IMG/VR virus record: IMGVR_UViG_2711768009_000014
Strand: one strand, 5' to 3'
Origin: a virus
Taxonomy: Duplodnaviria > Heunggongvirae > Uroviricota > Caudoviricetes
Length of the DNA: 6,532 nt
In this document: one piece after another, positions 141 to 6,532 of the stretch
How the letters are laid out: the number at the start of each line of letters is the position of its first letter
Numbering within the stretch: position 1 is the first letter of the stretch
Position numbers and translations under genes: made by a program
The notes under the pieces: generated by a model
What the model saw: the letters and a program-made list of their open reading frames with translations, nothing else
Databases searched by the model: none
Told to the model about the DNA's origin: nothing

Positions 141-325
141 GGATAGCGGTCATGTGATGCCGGTTTCCCGGTAACTCAGCACCGGTATCTGAGTCAACGT
201 TTTCTCTACTGGGTCATTTCCGATACGCCCTGCCTGCTGACAGGCTTTCATCACATCTGAAAATATAGCACCCTGACTGATACTGTAGTACCTAAGGTTC
301 CAGAAACTGTGATGTATCCGGCACA

Positions 326-347
326 GAAAAGCCCCTCCGGAGAGGGC
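326..347 (-). terminator. Possible rho-independent terminator downstream of the tRNA cluster
   Basis: Minus strand reads CCCTC-tccg-GAGGG (5-bp stem) followed by GCTTTTCTGTG; short stem, imperfect U-run. Confidence 0.3.
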
Positions 348-584
348 TGGAGAGTGGCGCTATGTGCCATTGCATGATGCCGGGTGCCTCCCGGTGAATT
401 CAGTACCAGCACCTGAATCCGCGATTATCCCATATACCTACTCGCTGATTGCCCCTCCGCACAGGGGGATTCACCATGCCAGTTTCTTTTAACAAACTCC
501 CCGCAAAACAGACAACTGTCAACCGTCTGAATTGTGAGACATTTAAAAAAAAGGCCCGCAAAAGCGAGCCAGGGAAAATAAGTG

Positions 585-661
585 TGGCGCGTTGTACTGG
601 ATTCGAACCAGTGACCGATTGCTTAGAAGGCAATTGCTCTGTCCGGCTGAGCTAACAACGC
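585..661 (-). tRNA. tRNA-Arg (anticodon UCU)
   Basis: Minus-strand sequence GCGTTGT-TA-GCTC-AGCCGGACA-GAGC-A-ATTGC-CTTCTAA-GCAAT-CGGTC-ACTGG-TTCGAAT-CCAGT-ACAACGC-G-CCA folds as a canonical cloverleaf with perfect 7-bp acceptor stem, GTTCGAATC T-loop, encoded CCA; anticodon loop CT-TCT-AA. Confidence 0.85.
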
Positions 662-674
662 ATGATGCAGATAA

Positions 675-751
675 TGGACCGCCATCGGGGACTTGAACCC
701 CGCGCAGCCAGCTTCGAAGGCTGGCGCTCTTTCCTGATGAGCTAATGGCGG
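675..751 (-). tRNA. tRNA-Arg (anticodon UCG)
   Basis: Minus-strand CCGCCAT-TA-GCTC-ATCAGGAAA-GAGC-G-CCAGC-CTTCGAA-GCTGG-CTGCG-CGGGG-TTCAAGT-CCCCG-ATGGCGG-T-CCA; perfect acceptor, anticodon and T stems; anticodon loop CT-TCG-AA. The 5' nucleotide is C (C1-G72), unusual but tolerated. Confidence 0.8.
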
Positions 752-758
752 TATGTGA

Positions 759-834
759 TGGTGGCCCTTGCTGGATTTGAACCAGCGACCTGGCGATTAT
801 GAGTCGCTCGCTCTCACCACTGAGCTAAAGGGCC
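759..834 (-). tRNA. tRNA with CAU anticodon (tRNA-Ile2 lysidine-type or tRNA-Met; cannot be distinguished from sequence alone)
   Basis: Minus-strand GGCCCTT-TA-GCTC-AGTGGTGA-GAGC-G-AGCGA-CTCATAA-TCGCC-AGGTC-GCTGG-TTCAAAT-CCAGC-AAGGGCC-A-CCA; perfect 7-bp acceptor stem, encoded CCA. A CAU/Arg/Arg tRNA trio in this order matches the ileZ-argN-argO arrangement recalled from Stx-converting lambdoid phages. Confidence 0.85.
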
Positions 835-874
835 GGGAGCCGCATAATAACGACGCGTAATTAATTCTTCAATA

Positions 875-1828
875 TCATCCGTTCTGGCTGACTAAATCCT
901 GTACTTCCCGAACCGTCTGCTCAAAACGTTCAGTCTCCAGCTCAACGCCAATTGCACGACGCCCGAGCGCCAGTGCCGCTTTCACTGTCGAACCCAACCC
1001 CATGAAAAAATCTGCAATCAGGTCACCCGGACGACTGCTAGCGCTGATTATCTGCTGCAGCATTTCTGCCGGTTTTTCGCACGGATGTTTCCCGGGATAG
1101 AACTGCACCGGTTTATGCGTCCACACATCGGTATACGGCACCTGCACCGTCACGCCAAAATACCGCCGCAGATGTTTATATTCACTCAGCAGCTCCGCAT
1201 ACTGCCGGTTCAGTGAGGTATACGTATCCACCAGCTGGTGGTGGAGCTTTTCCAGTTCACCACGCCGATGCTTCTCTTCTGCCACCCGGGCAAACAGCGC
1301 CTGTAATTTCAGATAATCGCTTTCATTCGGCAACTGCCACTGACCGGCACTGAACCAGTGCGACACCATGTTTTTCTTTCCTGTGGCATCTGCAATCTGT
1401 TTTGCCGTTATCCCCAGGGCAGCTCGCGCATCACGAAAGTAAGAAATCAGCGGGGCCATCACATGCTGTTTCAGTGCACTGCCCTTCGCCGCATACCCGG
1501 CATCTTTCGGACGATACGGCCCCTGATAATGTTCCGCGAACAGAATGCGCTCTGTGGCGGGGAAATACGCCCGCAGGCTTTCCTTGTTGCATCCGTTCCA
1601 GCGTCCGGACGGCTTCGCCCAGATAATATGGTTCAGCACACTGAAGCGTTCACGCATCATGATTTCGATATCAGATGCCAGGCGATGACCACAGAACAGG
1701 TAAAGACTTCCGGCAGGTTTCAGCACCCGCCAGAACTGCGCCAGACACTGGTCCAGCCACTTCAGGTAATCATCGTCGCCCTTCCACTGGTTATCCCAGC
1801 CCTCAGGCTTCACTTTAAAGTACGGCGG
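875..1828 (-). CDS. DNA methyltransferase, beta-class (N6-adenine or N4-cytosine), 5'-partial because the N-terminus is interrupted by the N gap
   Basis: ORF 875..1813 extends in frame to the gap edge, where the codons read PPYFK (catalytic motif IV, DPPY; base 1829 is consistent with a GAC Asp codon). Near the C-terminus the AdoMet-binding motif I appears as DFFMGLGST. Motif IV before motif I defines the beta permutation. No restriction endonuclease candidate is adjacent. Confidence 0.85.
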   Translation of the reverse strand, partial: PPYFKVKPEGWDNQWKGDDDYLKWLDQCLAQFWRVLKPAGSLYLFCGHRLASDIEIMMRERFSVLNHIIWAKPSGRWNGCNKESLRAYFPATERILFAEHYQGPYRPKDAGYAAKGSALKQHVMAPLISYFRDARAALGITAKQIADATGKKNMVSHWFSAGQWQLPNESDYLKLQALFARVAEEKHRRGELEKLHHQLVDTYTSLNRQYAELLSEYKHLRRYFGVTVQVPYTDVWTHKPVQFYPGKHPCEKPAEMLQQIISASSRPGDLIADFFMGLGSTVKAALALGRRAIGVELETERFEQTVREVQDLVSQNG

Positions 1829-1829
1829 G

Positions 1830-1860
1830 NNNNNNNNNNNNNNNNNNNNNNNNNNNNNNN
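1830..1860. other. Run of 31 N (assembly gap or masked bases)
   Basis: Literal n characters at 1830-1860; true length and sequence unknown, so reading frame across the gap is not defined. Confidence 0.99.
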
Positions 1861-1952
1861 GCGCAAAGCAGTGGGCCTGAGGTTTGCTTGTGAACCCAAC
1901 GCATGAGCAGATGGCTGGTGGGTGCCCCTAACACCCACCAGCCGCCCATTTA

Positions 1953-1984
1953 CCACAAATAAAAAAGCCTTCACTGCGGAAGGC
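1953..1984 (-). terminator. Rho-independent terminator overlapping the stop codon of the 65-aa ORF
   Basis: Minus strand: GCCTTC-cgcagt-GAAGGC (6-bp perfect stem) followed by TTTTTTATTTGTGG. Confidence 0.55.
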
Positions 1985-2168
1985 GTCTGTAACAACCGAA
2001 CTGATAGTCTGCCAGACCCGCCATAACCAGCTGGGTCAGTATTAACTGGCAGCGTTCGCGTGAAAGGTAAGTATTCTGCGCTATCTCCCCGACTGTCGCC
2101 GGTTCGGTAACGCTTAATTCATTAAACACCACTCTGGCGGTTTCTGTCATATCCTGCTGTTTTAGCAT
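1971..2168 (-). CDS. Hypothetical small protein (65 aa), possible helix-turn-helix DNA-binding fold; first ORF downstream of pR'/tR'
   Basis: ATG at 2168-2166 preceded by AAAGGAAAAGAC; protein MLKQQDMTETARVVFNELSVTEPATVGEIAQNTYLSRERCQLILTQLVMAGLADYQFGCYRRLPQ. The segment TVGEIAQNTYLSRERCQLILTQL resembles an HTH recognition helix; no family assigned. Confidence 0.45.
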   Translation of the reverse strand: MLKQQDMTETARVVFNELSVTEPATVGEIAQNTYLSRERCQLILTQLVMAGLADYQFGCYRRLPQ

Positions 2169-2288
2169 GTCTTTTCCTTTTCCGGTTAACGTGACACACC
2201 AATAACTCTTGTCGAAAAAGCCAGCAAGCTGAAAGACAGGTATTCACCGCCACCAGCGCGTTTACTGTACTGACGCGATTTCAGTCAT

Positions 2289-2310
2289 AAAAAACCCGCT
2301 CGGCGGCGGG
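2289..2310 (-). terminator. tR'-like rho-independent terminator of the late promoter leader
   Basis: Minus strand CCCGC-cgccga-GCGGG followed by TTTTTTATG; lies about 45-65 nt downstream of the predicted pR' start. Confidence 0.6.
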
Positions 2311-2351
2311 TTGTAGAAACTCTTCTAACGTCAGGCATAAAACGCCCATCG

Positions 2352-2387
2352 TTATAACGAATTTACCACAGATTCCGGAAAAATCAA
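2352..2387 (-). promoter_or_regulatory. Late promoter pR'-like (Q-dependent), with lambda-type -10 TAAATT and downstream AACGATGGG sigma70 pause element
   Basis: Minus strand, immediately after the Q stop codon: TTGATT (2387-2382) - 16 nt - TAAATT (2365-2360) - cgttata - ACGATGGG. Lambda pR' as I recall it has TTGACT, TAAATT and AACGATGGG at matching spacing. Confidence 0.6.
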
Positions 2388-2392
2388 CCTTG

Positions 2393-3214
2393 TTACCTAG
2401 TTACCTTTTTTAACTGCCGCTCAGCCCATGCTTCTTCAATATCAAACCGGGTCACCAGCGCATCATAAAATTTCTTAACTGTTTTTTCCCATGACGCGCG
2501 TGTTATCTGGTTTGTCACCTCGCATATAGCATTAAATGCCTCCGTTGATGGTAGTCTTTCATAGCCACGACCACCACAACGCTGGCAGTCTCTGATAACA
2601 GGCATACCACGTTTTACCGACTCTTCACGATGAATGGCGACACCACGCCCACGGCAATCCTTACAGGCGGTGGAAACCTCACCCTTTCCGCCACACTCCG
2701 GACAGGCAACTTTTACCACCTCCCTGACTTTTTTCCATTCTTCCCAGTAAGACGGATACACACCTTTCGTACACTTTGCCCATACCGGCGGCTTACCATC
2801 CGGATACTGGATCTTGTTTGTAAAAACCTCGCTTTCAATAAATTTTTTTCCGTGACAGCAGGGGCACTGTTTTTTGCTCGCCGCGCTACGGGCATAATCT
2901 TCAAACGCATACGAAGCCATAATACGCATCACTGCCGGTTTTATTTCTGCCGGGAGTTTTCTTAACGCCGCCACGCGATCACACCGACTGAGTGCATATT
3001 CTGTCAGCAATTCTGTTGCCCGCTCTCTGTCATTCATACTAATGCCCATTTTCCCAAGGAACGCAGAAACCCCCATCTCAGCCCGATTCTGTGTCATGCC
3101 CTGCGCGGCCATCACATCAGTGATACTCAGCGCATCTTTCGACGTTGAGGCCGATGCATCAGTCAGGCCGGGGGATTTTGGGGAGTAGTATTTCGGTAAA
3201 TCTTCCAGTTTCAT
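2393..3214 (-). CDS. Q: Late-gene antitermination protein Q (lambda Q family) with an expanded cysteine-rich zinc-finger region
   Basis: 273 aa; recognisable blocks shared with lambda Q as recalled: N-terminal M-[KR]-LE...K-[FY]-x-SPKSP, TDVMAAxGM, AxYAFxDYxRSAA, C-terminal WxxTVKxxYDALV. The central region carries CPCCHGKK, CPECGGKG, CKDCRGRG and CQRCGGRG (CxxCxGxG repeats). Start ATG overlaps the rusA stop (ATGA); followed directly by the pR'-like promoter. Confidence 0.8.
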   Translation of the reverse strand: MKLEDLPKYYSPKSPGLTDASASTSKDALSITDVMAAQGMTQNRAEMGVSAFLGKMGISMNDRERATELLTEYALSRCDRVAALRKLPAEIKPAVMRIMASYAFEDYARSAASKKQCPCCHGKKFIESEVFTNKIQYPDGKPPVWAKCTKGVYPSYWEEWKKVREVVKVACPECGGKGEVSTACKDCRGRGVAIHREESVKRGMPVIRDCQRCGGRGYERLPSTEAFNAICEVTNQITRASWEKTVKKFYDALVTRFDIEEAWAERQLKKVTR

Positions 3215-3591
3215 TTTTTGACCTGCCCTTCAAGCATTATGGGATAAATCTTCACCCCCAGACGTCCACCAGATACTGGCTGAGCACGAACGATATTGAT
3301 TTCATCAAACTGCTCATCGTCCATTAGCAACCCCGCATGCGTCAGCGCATCCAGCGGCGCTTTCAGAATATTGTCCAGGTCACGGCGGCGCTTATCCGGT
3401 GGTTCTGCAATAATTTTTATTGCCAACCTTCCGGACAGGCTTAATTTCAGCCGCTGCTGGCGAACAATAAGCGCCACTGCCCGGCGATAACGCTCCCCGG
3501 CTTTTGATACAAAATATGTGCTGCCACGACGACGCCAGTAAGTGTTCACCGTCGGCGGGTAAGGTAAAACAAATTCTATGCGCTCGGTCAT
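3211..3591 (-). CDS. rusA: RusA-family Holliday junction resolvase (crossover junction endodeoxyribonuclease)
   Basis: 126 aa; motifs LPYPPTVN, PDKRRRDLDN, KAPLDALTHAGLLMDDEQF and SGGRLGVKI align with E. coli RusA (LPWPPSNN, PDRRRRDLDN, KAAFDALTKAGFWLDDAQV, KGGRLELTI). ATG abuts the upstream stop (TAAATG). Confidence 0.9.
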   Translation of the reverse strand: MTERIEFVLPYPPTVNTYWRRRGSTYFVSKAGERYRRAVALIVRQQRLKLSLSGRLAIKIIAEPPDKRRRDLDNILKAPLDALTHAGLLMDDEQFDEINIVRAQPVSGGRLGVKIYPIMLEGQVKK

Positions 3592-4650
3592 TTATGCTTT
3601 CCACTTCAGAACACCCGAATTTCTCGCGTGCATTAAAAAACGAATCAGCAACAACAGCTGACTGCCGTGTTTCTCTTCAAAATCTTTTACTCCGGCATGT
3701 AGTTCGTTACGGCATTTACGGCATAACGGAATAACAAACAAATCATCAGCCTTTGTTCCCATCCCTCCCAGTCCATGACCAATGATGTGATGCGGATCAT
3801 CTGCCTGATTGCCACACGTCATGCATTTCTGCGTTTTTACCCAGCGCGTGTATACAGGCATCTCTTCCCGTTGTGATTTCTGGCGCTGGAGATACTGAGC
3901 CGGTGACTCCGGATCAACGGCAATGCTGACCACCGTCTTTTCCTGTGGTGGGTTCTGTTGCTGGTGGACGTGAGGCAGTAACGCAATATTTTTTGTGCGC
4001 TGCTTCAGTATGCTGGTGGCTGTCTGCTCTCCCGGTATGATGTCGCTTTCACTGTACACAGAGCGAATTTTTTCCGCACGCAACCCCAGCGAACGACGTA
4101 ATACCGCTTCCGGTAGCGCGTCCGCCACCTGATTGCGGACCGCCCACCAGGATAATTCAGCCAGAGATAATTCACGCTCCTGCGTACCGCTTATTGCGTG
4201 ACCGATGACGTCAATCATCCATGCTGACAGGTTTTGATGAGCAAGTTGCTCGAGTGATTCGGATGTCTGGTCACGCAGCTGGTTGTCGCAGTGCCAGCAC
4301 AACACCATTGCGCCGGTACCATAACGGTGAATGACGGTTTCGCTGTGATGATAATCGCCGTGTGGCCACTGGCAGGATTTAATATGGCGCAACAGCCAGT
4401 CAGACAATGCACCAGCACCACCAGCAGCACGAATCACCCGTGCGTTACTGAAAAACGGCAGCAATGTTTTGTCTTCCACCAGCGGCTGGCGAGCGGCAGG
4501 AACGACCCCGGACGGCAGATTACGCATGCTTTTTGGTTCCGGCTCCACCAGTATTCTGCCGTTATGGAATGCTGACATTGATTCACGGCCTGGCTTAACG
4601 ATAACCAGACCGAGTTCCGGTACCAGAACAGGTCGAAGTAATACCCGCAC
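3592..4650 (-). CDS. Prophage DUF968-like protein (YdfU-like) with C-terminal HNH-like Cys/His motif
   Basis: 352-aa ORF with GTG start preceded by a strong SD (tctGGAGGtaatGTG); C-terminal CMTCGNQADDPHHIIGHG...CRKCRNELH resembles an HNH/zinc-ribbon nuclease motif. Size and position (immediately upstream of rusA and Q) match the ydfU-type gene of Qin-like prophages; family assignment is from memory. Alternative ATG start at 4578. Confidence 0.6.
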   Translation of the reverse strand: MRVLLRPVLVPELGLVIVKPGRESMSAFHNGRILVEPEPKSMRNLPSGVVPAARQPLVEDKTLLPFFSNARVIRAAGGAGALSDWLLRHIKSCQWPHGDYHHSETVIHRYGTGAMVLCWHCDNQLRDQTSESLEQLAHQNLSAWMIDVIGHAISGTQERELSLAELSWWAVRNQVADALPEAVLRRSLGLRAEKIRSVYSESDIIPGEQTATSILKQRTKNIALLPHVHQQQNPPQEKTVVSIAVDPESPAQYLQRQKSQREEMPVYTRWVKTQKCMTCGNQADDPHHIIGHGLGGMGTKADDLFVIPLCRKCRNELHAGVKDFEEKHGSQLLLLIRFLMHARNSGVLKWKA

Positions 4651-4725
4651 ATTACCTCCAGATCCGTTGCTGGAATGTGCGGGACGGACGCGTTGGCCGT
4701 TCGGAGTAAGGGAGCCTGACGGAGA

Positions 4726-5007
4726 TTATCCAGTGACGGTAGTCGAGGCTAAGGGCTTTTTTAACCTCGCATCCGCGCCTGCGGTAACACTGAATGAGCC
4801 ATTCGGCCTGTTCTTCAGTGCATGGGGGATGCTGGTACCAATCAGATTTAAATGCGTGAGAGCGCCGCCCGTGCCTGCTGGCAAAGACGGCTGAATTATC
4901 AGAATTGTGTAGTCTGGAAGGCAGTGGCTGACAATAGCGCCATTCTCAACGCGCACAGTATAGAGGCCATCTTCACTAAAAATTTCACGTAATTCTTCGA
5001 TTTTCAT
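4726..5007 (-). CDS. Hypothetical protein (93 aa from ATG at 5007)
   Basis: ATG at 5007-5005 preceded by a good SD (ctGGAAGGAttctgttgATG). N-terminal 40 aa (MKIEELREIFSEDGLYTVRVENGAIVSHCLPDYTILIIQ) look protein-like; the C-terminal half is Pro/Gly/Thr/Ala-rich and unusual. Confidence 0.45.
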   Translation of the reverse strand: MKIEELREIFSEDGLYTVRVENGAIVSHCLPDYTILIIQPSLPAGTGGALTHLNLIGTSIPHALKNRPNGSFSVTAGADARLKKPLASTTVTG

Positions 5008-5089
5008 CAACAGAATCCTTCCAGATAAATAGCACTCCCCTGTTCGGGGTCCATCCCTCTTCTCCCTGCGCGCTACTTAAGTATTTTTG

Positions 5090-5119
5090 ATTCTATTCCG
5101 GCACCATCTAAAACTTCAA
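5090..5119 (-). promoter_or_regulatory. Candidate sigma70 promoter for the 93aa-DUF968-rusA-Q operon
   Basis: Minus strand TTGAAG - 18 nt - TAGAAT, directly downstream of the hok terminator and about 85 nt upstream of the 93-aa ORF start; spacer slightly long. Confidence 0.35.
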
Positions 5120-5126
5120 ACGCGTT

Positions 5127-5159
5127 GAAAATAAAAACAAAAACCCGCCGAAGCGGGTT
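5127..5159 (-). terminator. Rho-independent terminator at the 3' end of the hok mRNA
   Basis: Minus strand AACCCGC-ttcg-GCGGGTT followed by TTTTGTTTTTATTTT; about 70 nt downstream of the hok stop, as expected for a hok transcript with a 3' fold-back region. Confidence 0.7.
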
Positions 5160-5227
5160 AAGTGTGGGTGCATTGAGGATGCCTGCCCCATCAGAGGTGG
5201 CGAGGGATTTCTCCCCCGCCTGGTCTC

Positions 5228-5383
5228 TTACTCCTCAGGTTCGTAAGCTGTGAAGACAGCGACCTCCGTCTGGCCGGTTCGAATTCGTACCTCGCAGAGG
5301 TCTTTCCTCGTTACCAGTGCCGTCACTATGACGGTTAAACAGATGACGATCAGGGCGATTAACATCGCCTTTTGCTGCTTCAT
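5228..5383 (-). CDS. hok: Hok/Gef-family membrane toxin (type I toxin), HokD/RelF-like, 51 aa
   Basis: MKQQKAMLIALIVICLTVIVTALVTRKDLCEVRIRTGQTEVAVFTAYEPEE: single transmembrane helix plus the conserved C-terminal ...RKxLCEVRIR..G.xEVAAF.AYE block of Hok proteins; SD GGAG 9 nt upstream. The leader (GCTTGAGGCT ... TAGCCTCTTAC ... GCAAGGAGAAG.AGGC.ATGAA) parallels the plasmid R1 hok mRNA leader as recalled. Confidence 0.9.
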   Translation of the reverse strand: MKQQKAMLIALIVICLTVIVTALVTRKDLCEVRIRTGQTEVAVFTAYEPEE

Positions 5384-5431
5384 AGCCTGCTTCTCCTTGC
5401 CTTTCGGCACGTAAGAGGCTAACCTAGATTT

Positions 5432-5505
5432 GCCGTTCATAGATTGAGCCTCAGATTAATGTTAAGCGTCTTGCCGGACGCGTAATGTTAACTGGGGCTT
5501 TTCTC
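5432..5505 (+). ncRNA. Putative Sok-like antisense RNA (antitoxin of the hok locus)
   Basis: On the plus strand inside the hok leader: TTGCCT (5397-5402) - 17 nt - TAACCT (5420-5425), with a transcript complementary to the mok-like SD/start region and ending near GGGGCTTTTCTCT (about 5495-5505), which resembles the 3' end of R1 Sok (GGGGCUAUCUUCUUU). Ends are approximate; no clean terminator hairpin identified. Confidence 0.4.
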
Positions 5506-5559
5506 TATCTGCCTTTTGGTGTTCATGCCTGAGACAGATAGCCTCAAGCACCCGCTGCA

Positions 5560-5588
5560 ATTCTACTTAACTCTCCTTTTCCCGCAAA
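5560..5588 (-). promoter_or_regulatory. Candidate hok mRNA promoter
   Basis: Minus strand TTTGCG - 17 nt - TAGAAT, with predicted start about 7 nt downstream at ..GGGTGCTTGAGGCT, corresponding to the conserved 5' end of hok mRNAs. Confidence 0.5.
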
Positions 5589-5674
5589 CCGTTTTTATCC
5601 CCAGCGGCAAATCGAATACACCACCAGCGCCACCGCCATCGCAATTCCTACCGTTGTTAATGCTTCAGGCCAGG

Positions 5675-6019
5675 TCATCGTAAAATATCCTCCACGCTTA
5701 TCAGTCCGTTCCGCTCCAGATAACTCATCGCCTTATCCGGTAATTTGCAGTCTGGCTTCGCTTTCCTCAGTTGCCAGGTTAACTGCTTTACCAGCATGGT
5801 TAACTCATCGACCAGACGCTGATATCCCACTGGTTTGTATTCATGCAATTTACCGGCTGGCTCTGCTGCCAGCGATACCAGTGCGATTTCCAGAACAGCA
5901 ATATCCATCTTATATGTGCGGATGATGTCATGGTCGATTGTGCCCGGTATGCACAGTCTCTGTGCTTCAATAGTCTCCTCTGCGTGAGCTATTAACTGCT
6001 CTCTGGTAAAAGTCGTCAT
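5675..6019 (-). CDS. Hypothetical protein (114 aa), longer member of a paralogous pair
   Basis: ATG overlaps the stop of the upstream 55-aa ORF (ATGA). Shares N-terminal MTTFTRE (vs MTTITKE) and the block [11 protein letters not shown] (vs [11 protein letters not shown]) with the 55-aa ORF. No family recognised. Confidence 0.55.
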
Positions 6020-6183
6020 GCCGTAGCCCCTTCTTGATATTTTTCAAACCAGAACACAACCGGCTCTGCTTCCAGCGATGCCAGCGCAATCCGTGCCAGT
6101 TCCATTTGTTCACCACGGGTAAGCCCGTTTTCAAGCGGGTTTTTAATGAACAATTCAATACGTTCTTTGGTAATAGTGGTCAT
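6016..6183 (-). CDS. Hypothetical small protein (55 aa), shorter member of the paralogous pair; below the 60-aa cutoff of the ORF track
   Basis: ATG at 6183-6181 preceded by a strong SD (taaGGAGtaacacATG); translation [55 protein letters not shown]; stop overlaps the start of the 114-aa ORF. Confidence 0.5.
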
Positions 6184-6193
6184 GTGTTACTCC

Positions 6194-6392
6194 TTAACCC
6201 GCAGTGCTTTCAACTGATGAGGGGAACAAAATCTTTTCATCAAACCCTGCATTCATATCATGAACAGCAACACACCAATCCATCGACGAACGATTATCAA
6301 GAGCCTCCATGATTTCATCCATGCGGCGTAGGTCATACAGGTAAATGCTTTTATCGCCAATGGTGTAAAAGCCAATTTTTTTCGGTGATGGA
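6194..6392 (-). pseudogene. 3' fragment (about 65 codons) of a gene truncated by the IS insertion
   Basis: Open frame runs from inside the IS end (6424) across the junction at 6393/6392 to the stop at 6194; the first 10 codons are IS-derived, so only ...PSPKKIGFYTIGDKSIYLYDLRRMDEIMEALDNRSSMDWCVAVHDMNAGFDEKILFPSSVESTAG* is native. Product not recognised. Confidence 0.5.
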
Positions 6393-6532
6393 TGAGGTGT
6401 ACTGGCAATAGCGGACACTACCATTTGTTCTTTTTTTAAGCAGCCATCTGATGATATTTTTCCCTGAAGGCTGCCGGGGAGATATTCCCCAGACGAGAGT
6501 GACGACGCTGACGATTGTAGAAAATCTCAATG
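6393..6532 (-). mobile_element. Second copy of the same IS3-family element end, inverted orientation; the rest of the element lies outside the window
   Basis: Exact reverse complement of 1-140. Confidence 0.8.
6436..6531 (-). CDS. IS3-family transposase OrfB C-terminal fragment (5'-partial, runs off window end)
   Basis: Mirror image of 2..97; same translation ...IEIFYNRQRRHSRLGNISPAAFREKYHQMAA*. Confidence 0.75.
   Translation of the reverse strand: MEIFYNRQRRHSRLGNISPAAFREKYHQMAA

Follow-up and report, generated by a model that had tools for sequence, protein, structure and literature searches.

The locus at positions 5588..5131 of a 6532-nucleotide stretch of DNA, taken from the Caudoviricetes record IMGVR_UViG_2711768009_000014 and here called the window, raises the question of whether it carries a hok/sok-type toxin-antitoxin module with all of its regulatory parts, what the ATG upstream of hok corresponds to, and whether an apparently intact copy in phage DNA is in any way out of the ordinary. 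The paradigm for such systems is the hok/sok locus of R1, which is plasmid-borne and has a proven role in post-segregational killing. By taking into account family signatures, a close homologue that has been studied experimentally, RNA structure and positional conservation, the interval was found to contain a complete hok/mok/sok type I toxin-antitoxin locus on the minus strand, with only Sok on the plus strand, and it is very probably a complete hok-mok-sok module of the hokD/hokW type that works by the R1 mechanism. Each of the regulatory parts listed for such a locus in a preliminary description of this DNA was recovered where it had been placed, and none of the elements of the locus was seen to carry an inactivating change. 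The set of elements is far more than would be expected by chance. The type of locus is already known: what is present is a complete and unremarkable copy of a familiar host-killing gene of prophages, together with its antisense RNA antidote.

Conservation was evaluated on a set of 51 homologous loci (alignment A2) from Escherichia, Photorhabdus, Pantoea, Erwinia, Kluyvera, Citrobacter and R1-type plasmids. The elements and the grounds for their assignment are the following.

5588..5583, minus strand: putative -35 box of the candidate hok promoter, TTTGCG, with a 17-nt spacer; 3/6 match to the consensus
5565..5560, minus strand: -10 box of the hok promoter, TAGAAT, 6 nt upstream of the transcript start; positional conservation
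5553..5137, minus strand: predicted full-length hok mRNA of approximately 417 nt; 5' end by homology with the R1 hok mRNA and from where the Rfam match begins, 3' end from the terminator U-run
5553..5542, minus strand: tac (translational activator), GGGUGCUUGAGG; pairs with fbi in the full-length minimum free energy (MFE) and centroid structures
5500..5494, minus strand: ucb/anti-SD box, AAGCCCC; complementary to tac and to the mok Shine-Dalgarno (SD) region, nearly invariant in A2
5452..5449, minus strand: mok SD, GAGG, 8 nt before the ATG; GAGG columns invariant in A2
5440..5228, minus strand: mok frame of 70 codons, in frame with hok and with a common stop; from the list of open reading frames, aligned with annotated mokW and mokC
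5397..5393, minus strand: hok SD, AGGAG; CAAGGAG nearly invariant in A2
5383..5228, minus strand: hok toxin gene, 51 aa, equal to K-12 HokD (RelF); Pfam HOK_GEF, 51/51 residues shared with HokD and 47/51 with HokW
5220..5199, minus strand: conserved 3' stem-loop, GGCGGGGGAG-AAAU-CCCUCGCC; covariation across the 51 loci
5178..5166, minus strand: fbi (fold-back inhibitory element), CCUCAAUGCACCC, with one bulged U at 5172; 12 bp with tac
5159..5131, minus strand: intrinsic terminator, formed by the stem-loop 5159..5142 and a U-run; terminator scan
5397..5425, plus strand: Sok promoter, TTGCCT-17-TAACCT, with the -35 at 5397-5402 and the -10 at 5420-5425; identical to the sokW promoter region
5432..5502, plus strand: predicted Sok antisense RNA of approximately 71 nt; ends transferred from annotated sokW and sokC

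The hok product matches Pfam HOK_GEF with E=3e-23 and 81.6 bits (cut-off 22). Both of the marks of the hokD/hokW subgroup, close sequence identity throughout the locus and lambdoid phage surroundings, were found, and the closest E. coli matches, at 97.5% DNA identity, are labelled hokD by RefSeq. The leader, which had been said to resemble closely that of the R1 hok mRNA, indeed scores 112.4 bits with Rfam RF01794 (gathering score 59) across 5553..5378, and nhmmer aligns the locus with R1 over the whole mRNA with E=3.6e-14. Since the RF01794 match is on the strand of the hok mRNA, beginning at the 5' end of the latter and stopping at the hok ATG, the model describes the hok leader and not Sok, so that the Rfam 'sok' match was ruled out as the Sok gene; in practice, a match of this name is to be read as the hok leader on the toxin strand and not as the antitoxin gene.

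The experimentally studied homologue is the hokW locus of Stx2 phage 933W and Sakai prophage Sp5 (AF125520), with 92.7% DNA identity over 465 nt. In 933W, mokW, hokW and sokW are annotated, the order of the parts is that of the window and the carrier is a lambdoid phage in both cases; mokW, like mok of the window, is in frame and of 70 codons. The Sok promoter, hairpin and tail are identical in the two loci, the hok promoters are 1 nt apart and otherwise identical, and HokW differs from Hok of the window in 4 of 51 residues, all of them close to the C-terminus. Sok and sokW differ only in their first 10 nt, which correspond to mok codons 2-4 (MNGKS in the window, MLNTC in 933W), the 5' tail reading GCCGUUCAUA in the window and GUUCAGCAUG in sokW. 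The two loci part past fbi, where the 933W sequence diverges and lacks the GC hairpin terminator that the window has in common with most hokD-type loci of the alignment. HokW was found to be toxic and to be neutralised by sokW, alteration of the sokW -10 by Takada et al. 2021 (primer YO-421) led to loss of antitoxin activity, and both the hokW mRNA and sokW were detected on northern blots (PMC8621323). The hokW system depends only in part on RNase III and Hfq, and smaller RNA species were also observed (PMC8621323).

R1 hok/mok/sok (parB) was compared through the 100%-matching copy on plasmid p1658/97 (NC_004998), and its architecture and element order are those of the window. The R1 Sok promoter, TTGCGC-17-TATCCT, has the same layout as TTGCCT-17-TAACCT here, and mok is of 70 codons in both, but relative to hok its frame is +1 in R1, whereas in the window the two are in frame; moreover, the leader of R1 is longer by a segment of approximately 16 nt, and the R1 Sok hairpin is approximately 18 nt shorter. 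According to Takada et al., Hok and HokW are 44% identical (PMC8621323). In the K-12 hokC (gef)/mokC/sokC locus tac and ucb are conserved, and sokC differs from Sok of the window by a shorter hairpin and a -10 that reads CACTCT instead of TAACCT; IS186 is found directly downstream, and the 3' region is no longer alignable with fbi. The hokD (relF) gene of the K-12 cryptic prophage Qin has the downstream neighbours of the window (rem, a DUF968/ydfU-type gene and Q) and an identical 3' UTR, at least through fbi. Its homology to the window, however, begins approximately 18 nt upstream of the hok ATG, with relB-relE in place of the hok promoter, tac, ucb, the mok start and the entire Sok gene. Presumably, the complete form found in the window is the ancestral one, and K-12 hokD, from which the gene has its name, is a 5'-truncated derivative of this arrangement.

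The preliminary description had also reported a 3' terminator with a preceding fold-back region, and these correspond to the stem-loop 5159..5142 followed by a T-run and to the pairing of 5553..5542 with 5178..5166. Folding of the full transcript, which had been suggested as a check on the fbi/tac pairing, yielded this pairing in both the MFE and the centroid structures, with conservation and compensatory change across the 51 loci. The MFE of the 417-nt transcript is -169.2 kcal/mol (z = -7.05), and 0 of 100 shuffled sequences were as stable; over the 51 homologues 81% of the structure is paired, as compared with 38-46% when the partners are slid, and 52 pairs are changed on both sides. For the tac-fbi helix 89.4% of the cells are paired across the loci, versus 38-63% when slid, and pair 4 shows a compensatory switch, being U-A in 31 loci and C-G in 15. 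The conserved 3' stem-loop (helices 19-20) is 96% and 83% paired in the same set, with 5 of 9 pairs altered on both sides, and by analogy with R1, for which a protective role of the corresponding structure can be derived from PMC9841398, it is likely to form the protective 3' end of the processed hok mRNA.

The assignment of ucb was modelled on R1 as described in PMC9841398. In the full-length MFE structure of the window RNA the mok SD is paired with a downstream box and not with ucb, and the partner of tac in the truncated RNA is either the neighbouring hairpin or ucb. With a cut at nt 365 the open tac/ucb stem is the MFE structure, whereas with cuts at nt 369 or 360 the 5' metastable hairpin takes its place, the open form being 5.1 kcal/mol worse at 369. 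With the same software the R1-type RNA gave a full-length MFE structure with the tac-fbi pairing and, on truncation, a difference of 0.2 kcal/mol between the metastable hairpin and the tac/ucb form. Because the MFE structure shifts with the cut point and the R1 control is equally ambiguous, the fold of the truncated RNA is no clear-cut test of the open form. A helix of the full-length MFE structure between GCCCCA (mRNA 56-61) and UGGGGC (5190..5185) is window-specific, with only 42% conservation among the homologues (helix 5), and was excluded from the mechanism.

As for the promoters, a generic sigma-70 scan flagged neither that of hok nor that of Sok; its sole call, at 5119..5090, is unrelated and lies downstream of the terminator. 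The two were missed because of their weak -35 boxes, and support was therefore taken from positional conservation and from identity with the experimentally mutated -10 of sokW. The candidate hok promoter put forward earlier gains from the finding that TAnnnT lies exactly 6 nt upstream of GGG(T/C)GCTTGAG in 48 of the 51 loci, the rest of the upstream DNA being divergent; its candidate -35 is identical in 933W hokW. The antisense promoter, also proposed in the preliminary description, has its motif kept in 48/51 loci as well, and the alignment by which its loss might have been detected showed it to be retained in the window and equal to that of sokW. Its -35 overlaps the hok SD (5393..5397, minus strand) on the opposite strand. 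The annotated 5' ends of sokW and sokC fall 9 nt within mok, which is equivalent to 5432 here. The predicted Sok has a single-stranded 5' tail above the mok start, a long hairpin at 5446-5500 and a U-tail, and its fold shows the tail free and a hairpin of -29.6 kcal/mol (z = -4.5). At the sequence level, a promoter in the interval between mok and the hok SD, a 5' tail and a terminator hairpin, as are to be expected of an antisense Sok gene, are all present; manual inspection of the target hairpin of the predicted Sok of this allele did not reveal a YUNR-type (U-turn) loop motif.

The preliminary description had noted the ATG at 5440 with an SD of its own, in frame with hok and opening a 70-codon frame, and had left its equivalence to mok undecided. 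The open reading frame (5440..5228) and the GAGG 8 nt before it were confirmed, and the alignment settles the matter: as the ATG occupies the same aligned position as the annotated starts of mokW (933W) and mokC (K-12), as well as that of R1 mok, it is the mok start. The ATG column is kept in 49/51 loci. Both mokW and mokC have a stop codon in common with their hok, and hence are in frame as well, mokC being of 69 codons.

With these elements, a mechanism can be proposed along the lines of R1. The weak promoter with its -10 at 5565..5560 would, as suggested by its conserved position and by homology, give rise to a stable mRNA of approximately 417 nt. In the full-length RNA the tac-fbi pairing, for which folding and covariation speak, would close the molecule and sequester the mok SD, presumably preventing its translation. 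Slow 3' trimming back to the stem-loop 5220..5199 would then remove fbi, and tac could pair with the ucb/anti-SD box, a step that is thermodynamically feasible in silico and would free the mok SD. Ribosomes starting at the mok ATG (5440) would cross the hok SD and start, permitting translation of the 51-aa Hok, predicted to be a membrane-depolarising peptide. The unstable Sok of approximately 71 nt (5432..5502), whose predicted expression would depend on the same TTGCCT-17-TAACCT promoter as validated for sokW, would pair with the mok start region, thus blocking translation of mok and hence of hok, and the duplex would be marked for RNase III. If the element is lost, transcription is shut off or the prophage is induced, Sok would no longer be made, Hok would be translated from the stored mRNA, and the cell would be killed or lysed.

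As chromosomal hok loci are often inactivated, the preliminary description had considered an apparently intact one inside a prophage worth testing for function. Evidence that an intact locus is unusual was looked for and the opposite was found, in that 3824 of 5426 complete E. coli genomes have a match spanning at least 80% of the locus, and full-length loci of this type occur in at least 595 IMG/VR stretches; intact hokD/hokW-type loci are the rule in natural E. coli, and the truncated hokD of K-12 is the exception. As intact loci are common and the 92.7%-identical hokW-sokW has already been assayed for killing, Sok rescue and RNAs on northern blots (PMC8621323), the reason first given for interest in the locus fails. 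Its importance is small beyond correct annotation, that is, the label of a hokD/hokW-type hok-mok-sok locus with Sok on the plus strand at approximately 5432..5502; automatic annotation mostly marks the 51-aa toxin gene alone.

The location of the locus was likewise only partly as first described. It had been placed inside a prophage, and the surrounding DNA is indeed lambdoid, but what is present is only a 6.25-kb fragment of the nin/Q region bracketed by inverted IS600 ends, with a rem-like ORF, DUF968, RusA, Q, a DNA methylase and phage tRNAs as neighbours. This context bears on the biological role of the module, for which a possible, tentatively held reading is that it is active and serves the phage, through faster lysis and phage release on induction or through abortive-infection defence, rather than post-segregational stabilisation. 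The hokW-sokW locus of Sp5 speeds host lysis and phage release on induction, its antitoxin signal is lost after mitomycin C while HokW is made in a RecA-dependent manner, and phage yield is halved when the locus is absent (PMC8621323). Furthermore, hok genes are approximately fourfold enriched in prophages (bioRxiv 10.1101/2025.08.07.668861), and the locus of the window lies between the replication/nin genes and Q, in a region of lambdoid elements that is transcribed early. However, lysis or morphogenesis genes were not found in the window and the fragment is bounded by IS600, which makes a role in progeny release doubtful unless the rest of the prophage is elsewhere; in addition, the 933W locus is found in a different part of its genome, near L0136-L0141 and not in the nin region, so that the position of the locus gives no functional clue. 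Such a phage-related role concerns the biological role only and leaves the molecular mechanism undisputed.

It is unlikely that the locus, though intact in sequence, is functionally silent, namely a passenger relic in an IS600-bounded prophage remnant with little or no transcription and no killing on loss of Sok. With only the 6.25-kb fragment left between the inverted IS600 ends, selection for a phage-related role may be relaxed, the -35 of hok is weak, and sequence intactness is no guarantee of activity since, by the account of earlier work cited in bioRxiv 10.1101/2025.08.07.668861, intact chromosomal hokA, hokB and hokC do not bring about post-segregational killing. Against this stand the lack of inactivating changes in all of the elements, a Hok identical to HokD, and two promoters that are identical to, or 1 nt from, those of the functional hokW-sokW. 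Moreover, the same 470 nt recur in two other IMG/VR contigs with 100% and 99.8% identity, and the 70-aa frame is encoded without any change by about 26 IMG/VR loci, a pattern that suggests maintenance and not decay. The complete hok-mok-sok module with the R1 mechanism is retained as the preferred reading.

That the 70-codon frame is instead the sole real toxin gene, with no separate internal hok start and with the concept of mok inapplicable, is extremely improbable: mok and hok do have one frame and one stop, and some phage records annotate just the long form as 'MokW protein', but the internal ATG is preceded by a strong SD, AGGAG, with hardly any variation in the family, K-12 hokD is entirely without the extension, R1 depends on the translation of mok and not on its product (PMC9841398), and in close relatives whose Hok is 93-95% identical the upstream ATG stands at +1 or +2, with 68 or 19 codons, as it stands at +1 in R1, so that the N-terminal extension is not conserved as a protein.

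Over the 51 loci mok is in frame with hok in about 35, at +1 in about 9 (R1 included) and at +2 in about 6. This variation among close relatives weakens the case for the in-frame extension as a conserved protein, and the conservation of the position of mok, but not of its frame, of which the comparison provides a clean illustration, agrees with the idea that what counts is translation of mok and not the Mok protein. With mok in frame, as in the window, initiation at 5440 would yield a 70-aa, N-terminally extended Hok with a basic 19-residue tail. In the manner of the dual-start holin/antiholin pairs known from lambdoid phages, this long form might be a functional second isoform that modulates or antagonises the 51-aa toxin, which we consider very unlikely; if true, it would tune the timing of membrane damage in prophage induction instead of being a mere by-product of translational coupling. 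For those handling such loci, clones of this fragment that lack the Sok promoter will probably be toxic.

Every cis element of a hok/mok/sok type I toxin-antitoxin module is present, undamaged and evolutionarily conserved at this locus, with the toxin mRNA on the minus strand and the antisense Sok RNA on the plus strand.

Features of the hok/mok/sok locus (window positions; identified from the sequence unless stated otherwise)
5588..5583, minus strand: candidate −35 element of the hok promoter, poor, TTTGCG
5565..5560, minus strand: −10-like hexamer of the hok promoter, TAGAAT
~5553, minus strand: transcript start, sequence GGGUGCUUGAGG...
from ~5553 to the mok ATG, minus strand: hok mRNA leader, 113 nt
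5452..5449, minus strand: mok Shine-Dalgarno (SD) sequence GAGG, 8 nt before ATG 5440
ATG 5440 to TAA 5230..5228, minus strand: mok frame, 70 codons (ORF list)
5397..5393, minus strand: hok SD sequence AGGAG
internal ATG 5383 to TAA 5230..5228, minus strand: hok frame, 51 codons (ORF list)
5220..5199, minus strand: GC-rich 3' stem-loop
5178..5166, minus strand: 3' fold-back inhibitory element (fbi), CCUCAAUGCACCC
5159..5142, minus strand: terminator hairpin, then U-run (terminator scan)
5397-5402 and 5420-5425, plus strand: Sok promoter, TTGCCT, 17-nt spacer, TAACCT (sequence and homology)
5432..5502, plus strand: Sok, 71 nt (ends transferred from annotated sokW and sokC)

The preliminary description had recognized a hok ORF, a leader similar to that of R1, a 3' terminator and a candidate hok promoter. 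The 70-aa product matches Pfam HOK_GEF (E=3e-23), the leader is matched by Rfam RF01794 (112.4 bits; gathering score, 59), and the terminator was found by the scan as a hairpin with its U-run. The hok promoter was not flagged by a generic promoter scan; it is nevertheless supported by an alignment of 51 distinct homologous hok loci (from Escherichia, Shigella, Kluyvera, Citrobacter, Pseudocitrobacter, Photorhabdus, Pantoea, Erwinia and R1-type plasmids), in 48 of which a TAnnnT hexamer precedes the GGG start by exactly 6 nt, the DNA upstream being otherwise unrelated. The corresponding region of the Stx2 phage 933W differs from the window by 1 nt. The RF01794 match spans, on the toxin strand, the region between the mRNA 5' end and the hok ATG (5553..5378, minus), so that this model, although named ‘sok antitoxin’, describes the toxin leader; taken as a Sok gene it has the wrong strand and the wrong length (176 nt versus ~71 nt), and it cannot supply the coordinates or strand of that gene.

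The 70-codon frame with its own SD sequence is in frame with hok, a single TAA closing both frames, and the question previously left undecided, whether its ATG is that of mok, can be answered: it is, 49 of the 51 loci having an ATG no more than 2 nt from the mok column. An in-frame arrangement is also found in mokW/hokW of 933W and in mokC/hokC, since each pair has a common stop codon. The R1-type copy on plasmid NC_004998, a 100% match to what we take to be the R1 sequence, differs in having a 70-codon mok in the +1 frame relative to hok. Across the alignment the mok frame varies, being in frame with a common stop in ~35 loci, at +1 in ~9 (55-70 codons) and at +2 in ~6 (19 codons, with the stop adjoining the hok start), and it differs even between loci whose Hok is 93-95% identical to that of the window. 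Such variation counts against conservation of the N-terminal extension as a protein and fits the view developed for R1, where the translation of mok, not the Mok product, is what counts (PMC9841398).

The proposal of an antisense Sok promoter also stands. Its motif, CTCCTTG(C/A)C...GTAAGAGGC-TAnnCT, is present in 48 of the 51 loci, R1 included, and in 933W the stretch from the Sok −10 to the hok ATG is entirely identical to the window. Replacement of the same −10 in sokW (primer YO-421) abolished protection against HokW, and both the hokW and sokW RNAs were detected by northern blots (Takada et al. 2021, PMC8621323). Both sokW and sokC are annotated as starting 9 nt inside mok. Sok is predicted to fold into a long hairpin (−29.6 kcal/mol, z = −4.5), followed by a U-tail and preceded by a free 5' tail of ~14-20 nt that covers the mok start; sokW differs from the window Sok in the first 10 nt only.

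In a set of 29 distinct hokD/hokW-type loci sharing at least 85% overall identity, no part of the transcript varies more than 5431-5440 (mok codons 1-4 and the first ~10 nt of Sok). The mean column entropy of this segment is 0.66, with values of at most 0.33 for any other 10-nt block between the transcript 5' end and fbi, and the mok N-terminal variants in the full alignment include MNGKS, MLNTC, MLDTC, MSHKC and MHDNI. As these nucleotides form the free 5' tail of Sok, their variability suggests that Sok-hok specificity is diversifying between co-resident copies.

Folding of the full transcript bore out the fold-back region proposed initially. The 417-nt RNA has a minimum free energy (MFE) of −169.2 kcal/mol (z = −7.05), and in both the MFE and centroid structures the 5' translational activator (tac, nt 1-12) pairs with fbi (nt 376-388) in a 12-bp helix with a single bulged U. 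Over the 51 loci, 89.4% of the cells in this helix are paired, and sliding the 3' partners by 1-3 columns lowers the value to 38-63%; pair 4 of the helix shows a compensatory switch (U-A in 31 loci, C-G in 15). The whole MFE structure is 81% paired (slid controls, 38-46%), with both-side changes at 52 pairs. The stem-loop at 5220..5199 is 96% and 83% paired over the same loci and, by analogy with the R1 stem-loop described in this role (PMC9841398), probably marks and protects the 3' end of the processed hok mRNA. The predicted MFE of 3'-cut RNAs changes with the cut point: a 5' metastable hairpin for cuts at nt 369 or 360, and an R1-type open form for a cut at nt 365, in which tac pairs with the anti-SD box (ucb, AAGCCCC, 5500..5494) and the mok SD with the downstream box. 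With the same software the R1-type RNA is equally ambiguous, the two forms lying 0.2 kcal/mol apart. According to these calculations, each of the three conformations in the R1 model appears accessible to the window RNA, the open form depending on where the 3' end lies, and a switch between the tac-fbi and open forms is thermodynamically plausible.

The R1 paradigm (summarized in PMC9841398) is the best-supported explanation of the locus, and from it we infer transcription, processing, coupling and killing in the present case. A stable hok mRNA would be made with its translation closed by tac-fbi pairing, and slow 3' trimming would open it; hok translation would require that of mok, and unstable Sok would block the mok start and trigger RNase III cleavage, so that loss of Sok would lead to Hok synthesis and membrane damage. 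As to the biological role, aiding lysis and release upon induction is a candidate with a precedent in the Sakai prophage Sp5 (PMC8621323); stabilization of the element and phage exclusion are the other candidates.

The TAC codon for Tyr47 of hok lies in a UACG context (5242-5245), within a UUACGAA motif, similar to the anticodon loop of tRNA-Arg, that hardly varies across the alignment. TadA A-to-I editing of hokC, hokD and hokE mRNAs, recoding a Tyr to the second Cys (‘cysteine 46’), has been described in a 2025-26 preprint, which also catalogued thousands of hok loci and their prophage enrichment (bioRxiv 10.1101/2025.08.07.668861).

The 51-aa Hok is identical over 51/51 residues to E. coli K-12 HokD (RelF) and over 47/51 to HokW. 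In K-12 Qin, homology to the window reaches only ~18 nt beyond the hok ATG on the 5' side, and relE and relB replace the promoter, leader, mok start and Sok; the window thus carries the complete form, of which K-12 hokD appears to be a 5'-truncated derivative. Accurate as the preliminary description was, the idea that an undamaged copy in a prophage is out of the ordinary proved wrong: of 5426 complete E. coli genomes, 4937 match a 521-nt query, and 3824 have a single place covering at least 80% of it (median 2 and maximum 10 matching places per genome; best matches 97.5% identical, labelled hokD in RefSeq). In a phage collection the locus is 92.7% identical to that of 933W, where mokW, hokW and antisense sokW are annotated. 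In IMG/VR, at least 595 stretches encode relatives, the identical 70-aa frame is encoded by 26 loci, and a 6236-bp contig is 100% identical over 5131..5600. Everything found at the locus is already known: the hok family has been on record since the 1980s, and the hokD/hokW subgroup has an annotated member in 933W, was put to experimental test in 2021 and is represented by identical sequence in public collections.

The neighbours of the locus, all on the minus strand, include small ORFs (6424..5675), a rem-like ORF (5010..4726), a DUF968/HNH gene, RusA, antiterminator Q, a further small ORF, a DNA methyltransferase, three tRNAs and an STnc100 sRNA match, in the same order as in Qin and many E. 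coli prophages. The sole sigma-70-like site from a scan of 4900-5800 (TTGAAG-18-TAGAAT, 5090-5119, minus) is located between the hok terminator, which it closely follows, and the rem-like ORF, of which it may be the promoter. In the closest whole-window relative (E. coli TUM10008), ~2 kb of extra DNA (6378-8344 there), encoding an HTH-domain protein and a hypothetical protein, separates hokD from the rem-like gene at the place that corresponds to window ~5010-5130, so that the intergenic DNA just 3' of hok seems to be an insertion hot spot in such prophages. A run of 31 N at 1830-1860, due either to masking or to a gap in the assembly, closely precedes the methyltransferase ORF (875..1813, minus), whose true 5' end may fall in or beyond this run, since the gene is annotated as longer (1050 nt) in a close relative.

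Positions 1-140 and 6393-6532 form a perfect 140-nt inverted repeat that matches the IS600 3' end at 100% identity (annotation: ‘IS3-like element IS600 family transposase’). The prophage DNA thus amounts to a 6.25-kb fragment (141..6392) between inverted IS600 copies or contig ends; it may represent a composite-transposon-like arrangement, or else a short-read contig ending in repeats. Downstream of Q and the methyltransferase lie the STnc100 match (123.6 bits) and the three tRNA genes (319-508 and 588-834, minus), the tRNAs being annotated as Ile, Arg and Arg in a close E. coli relative. Stx-converting phages carry stx at the tRNA position downstream of Q; in the window this region stops at the IS600 boundary.
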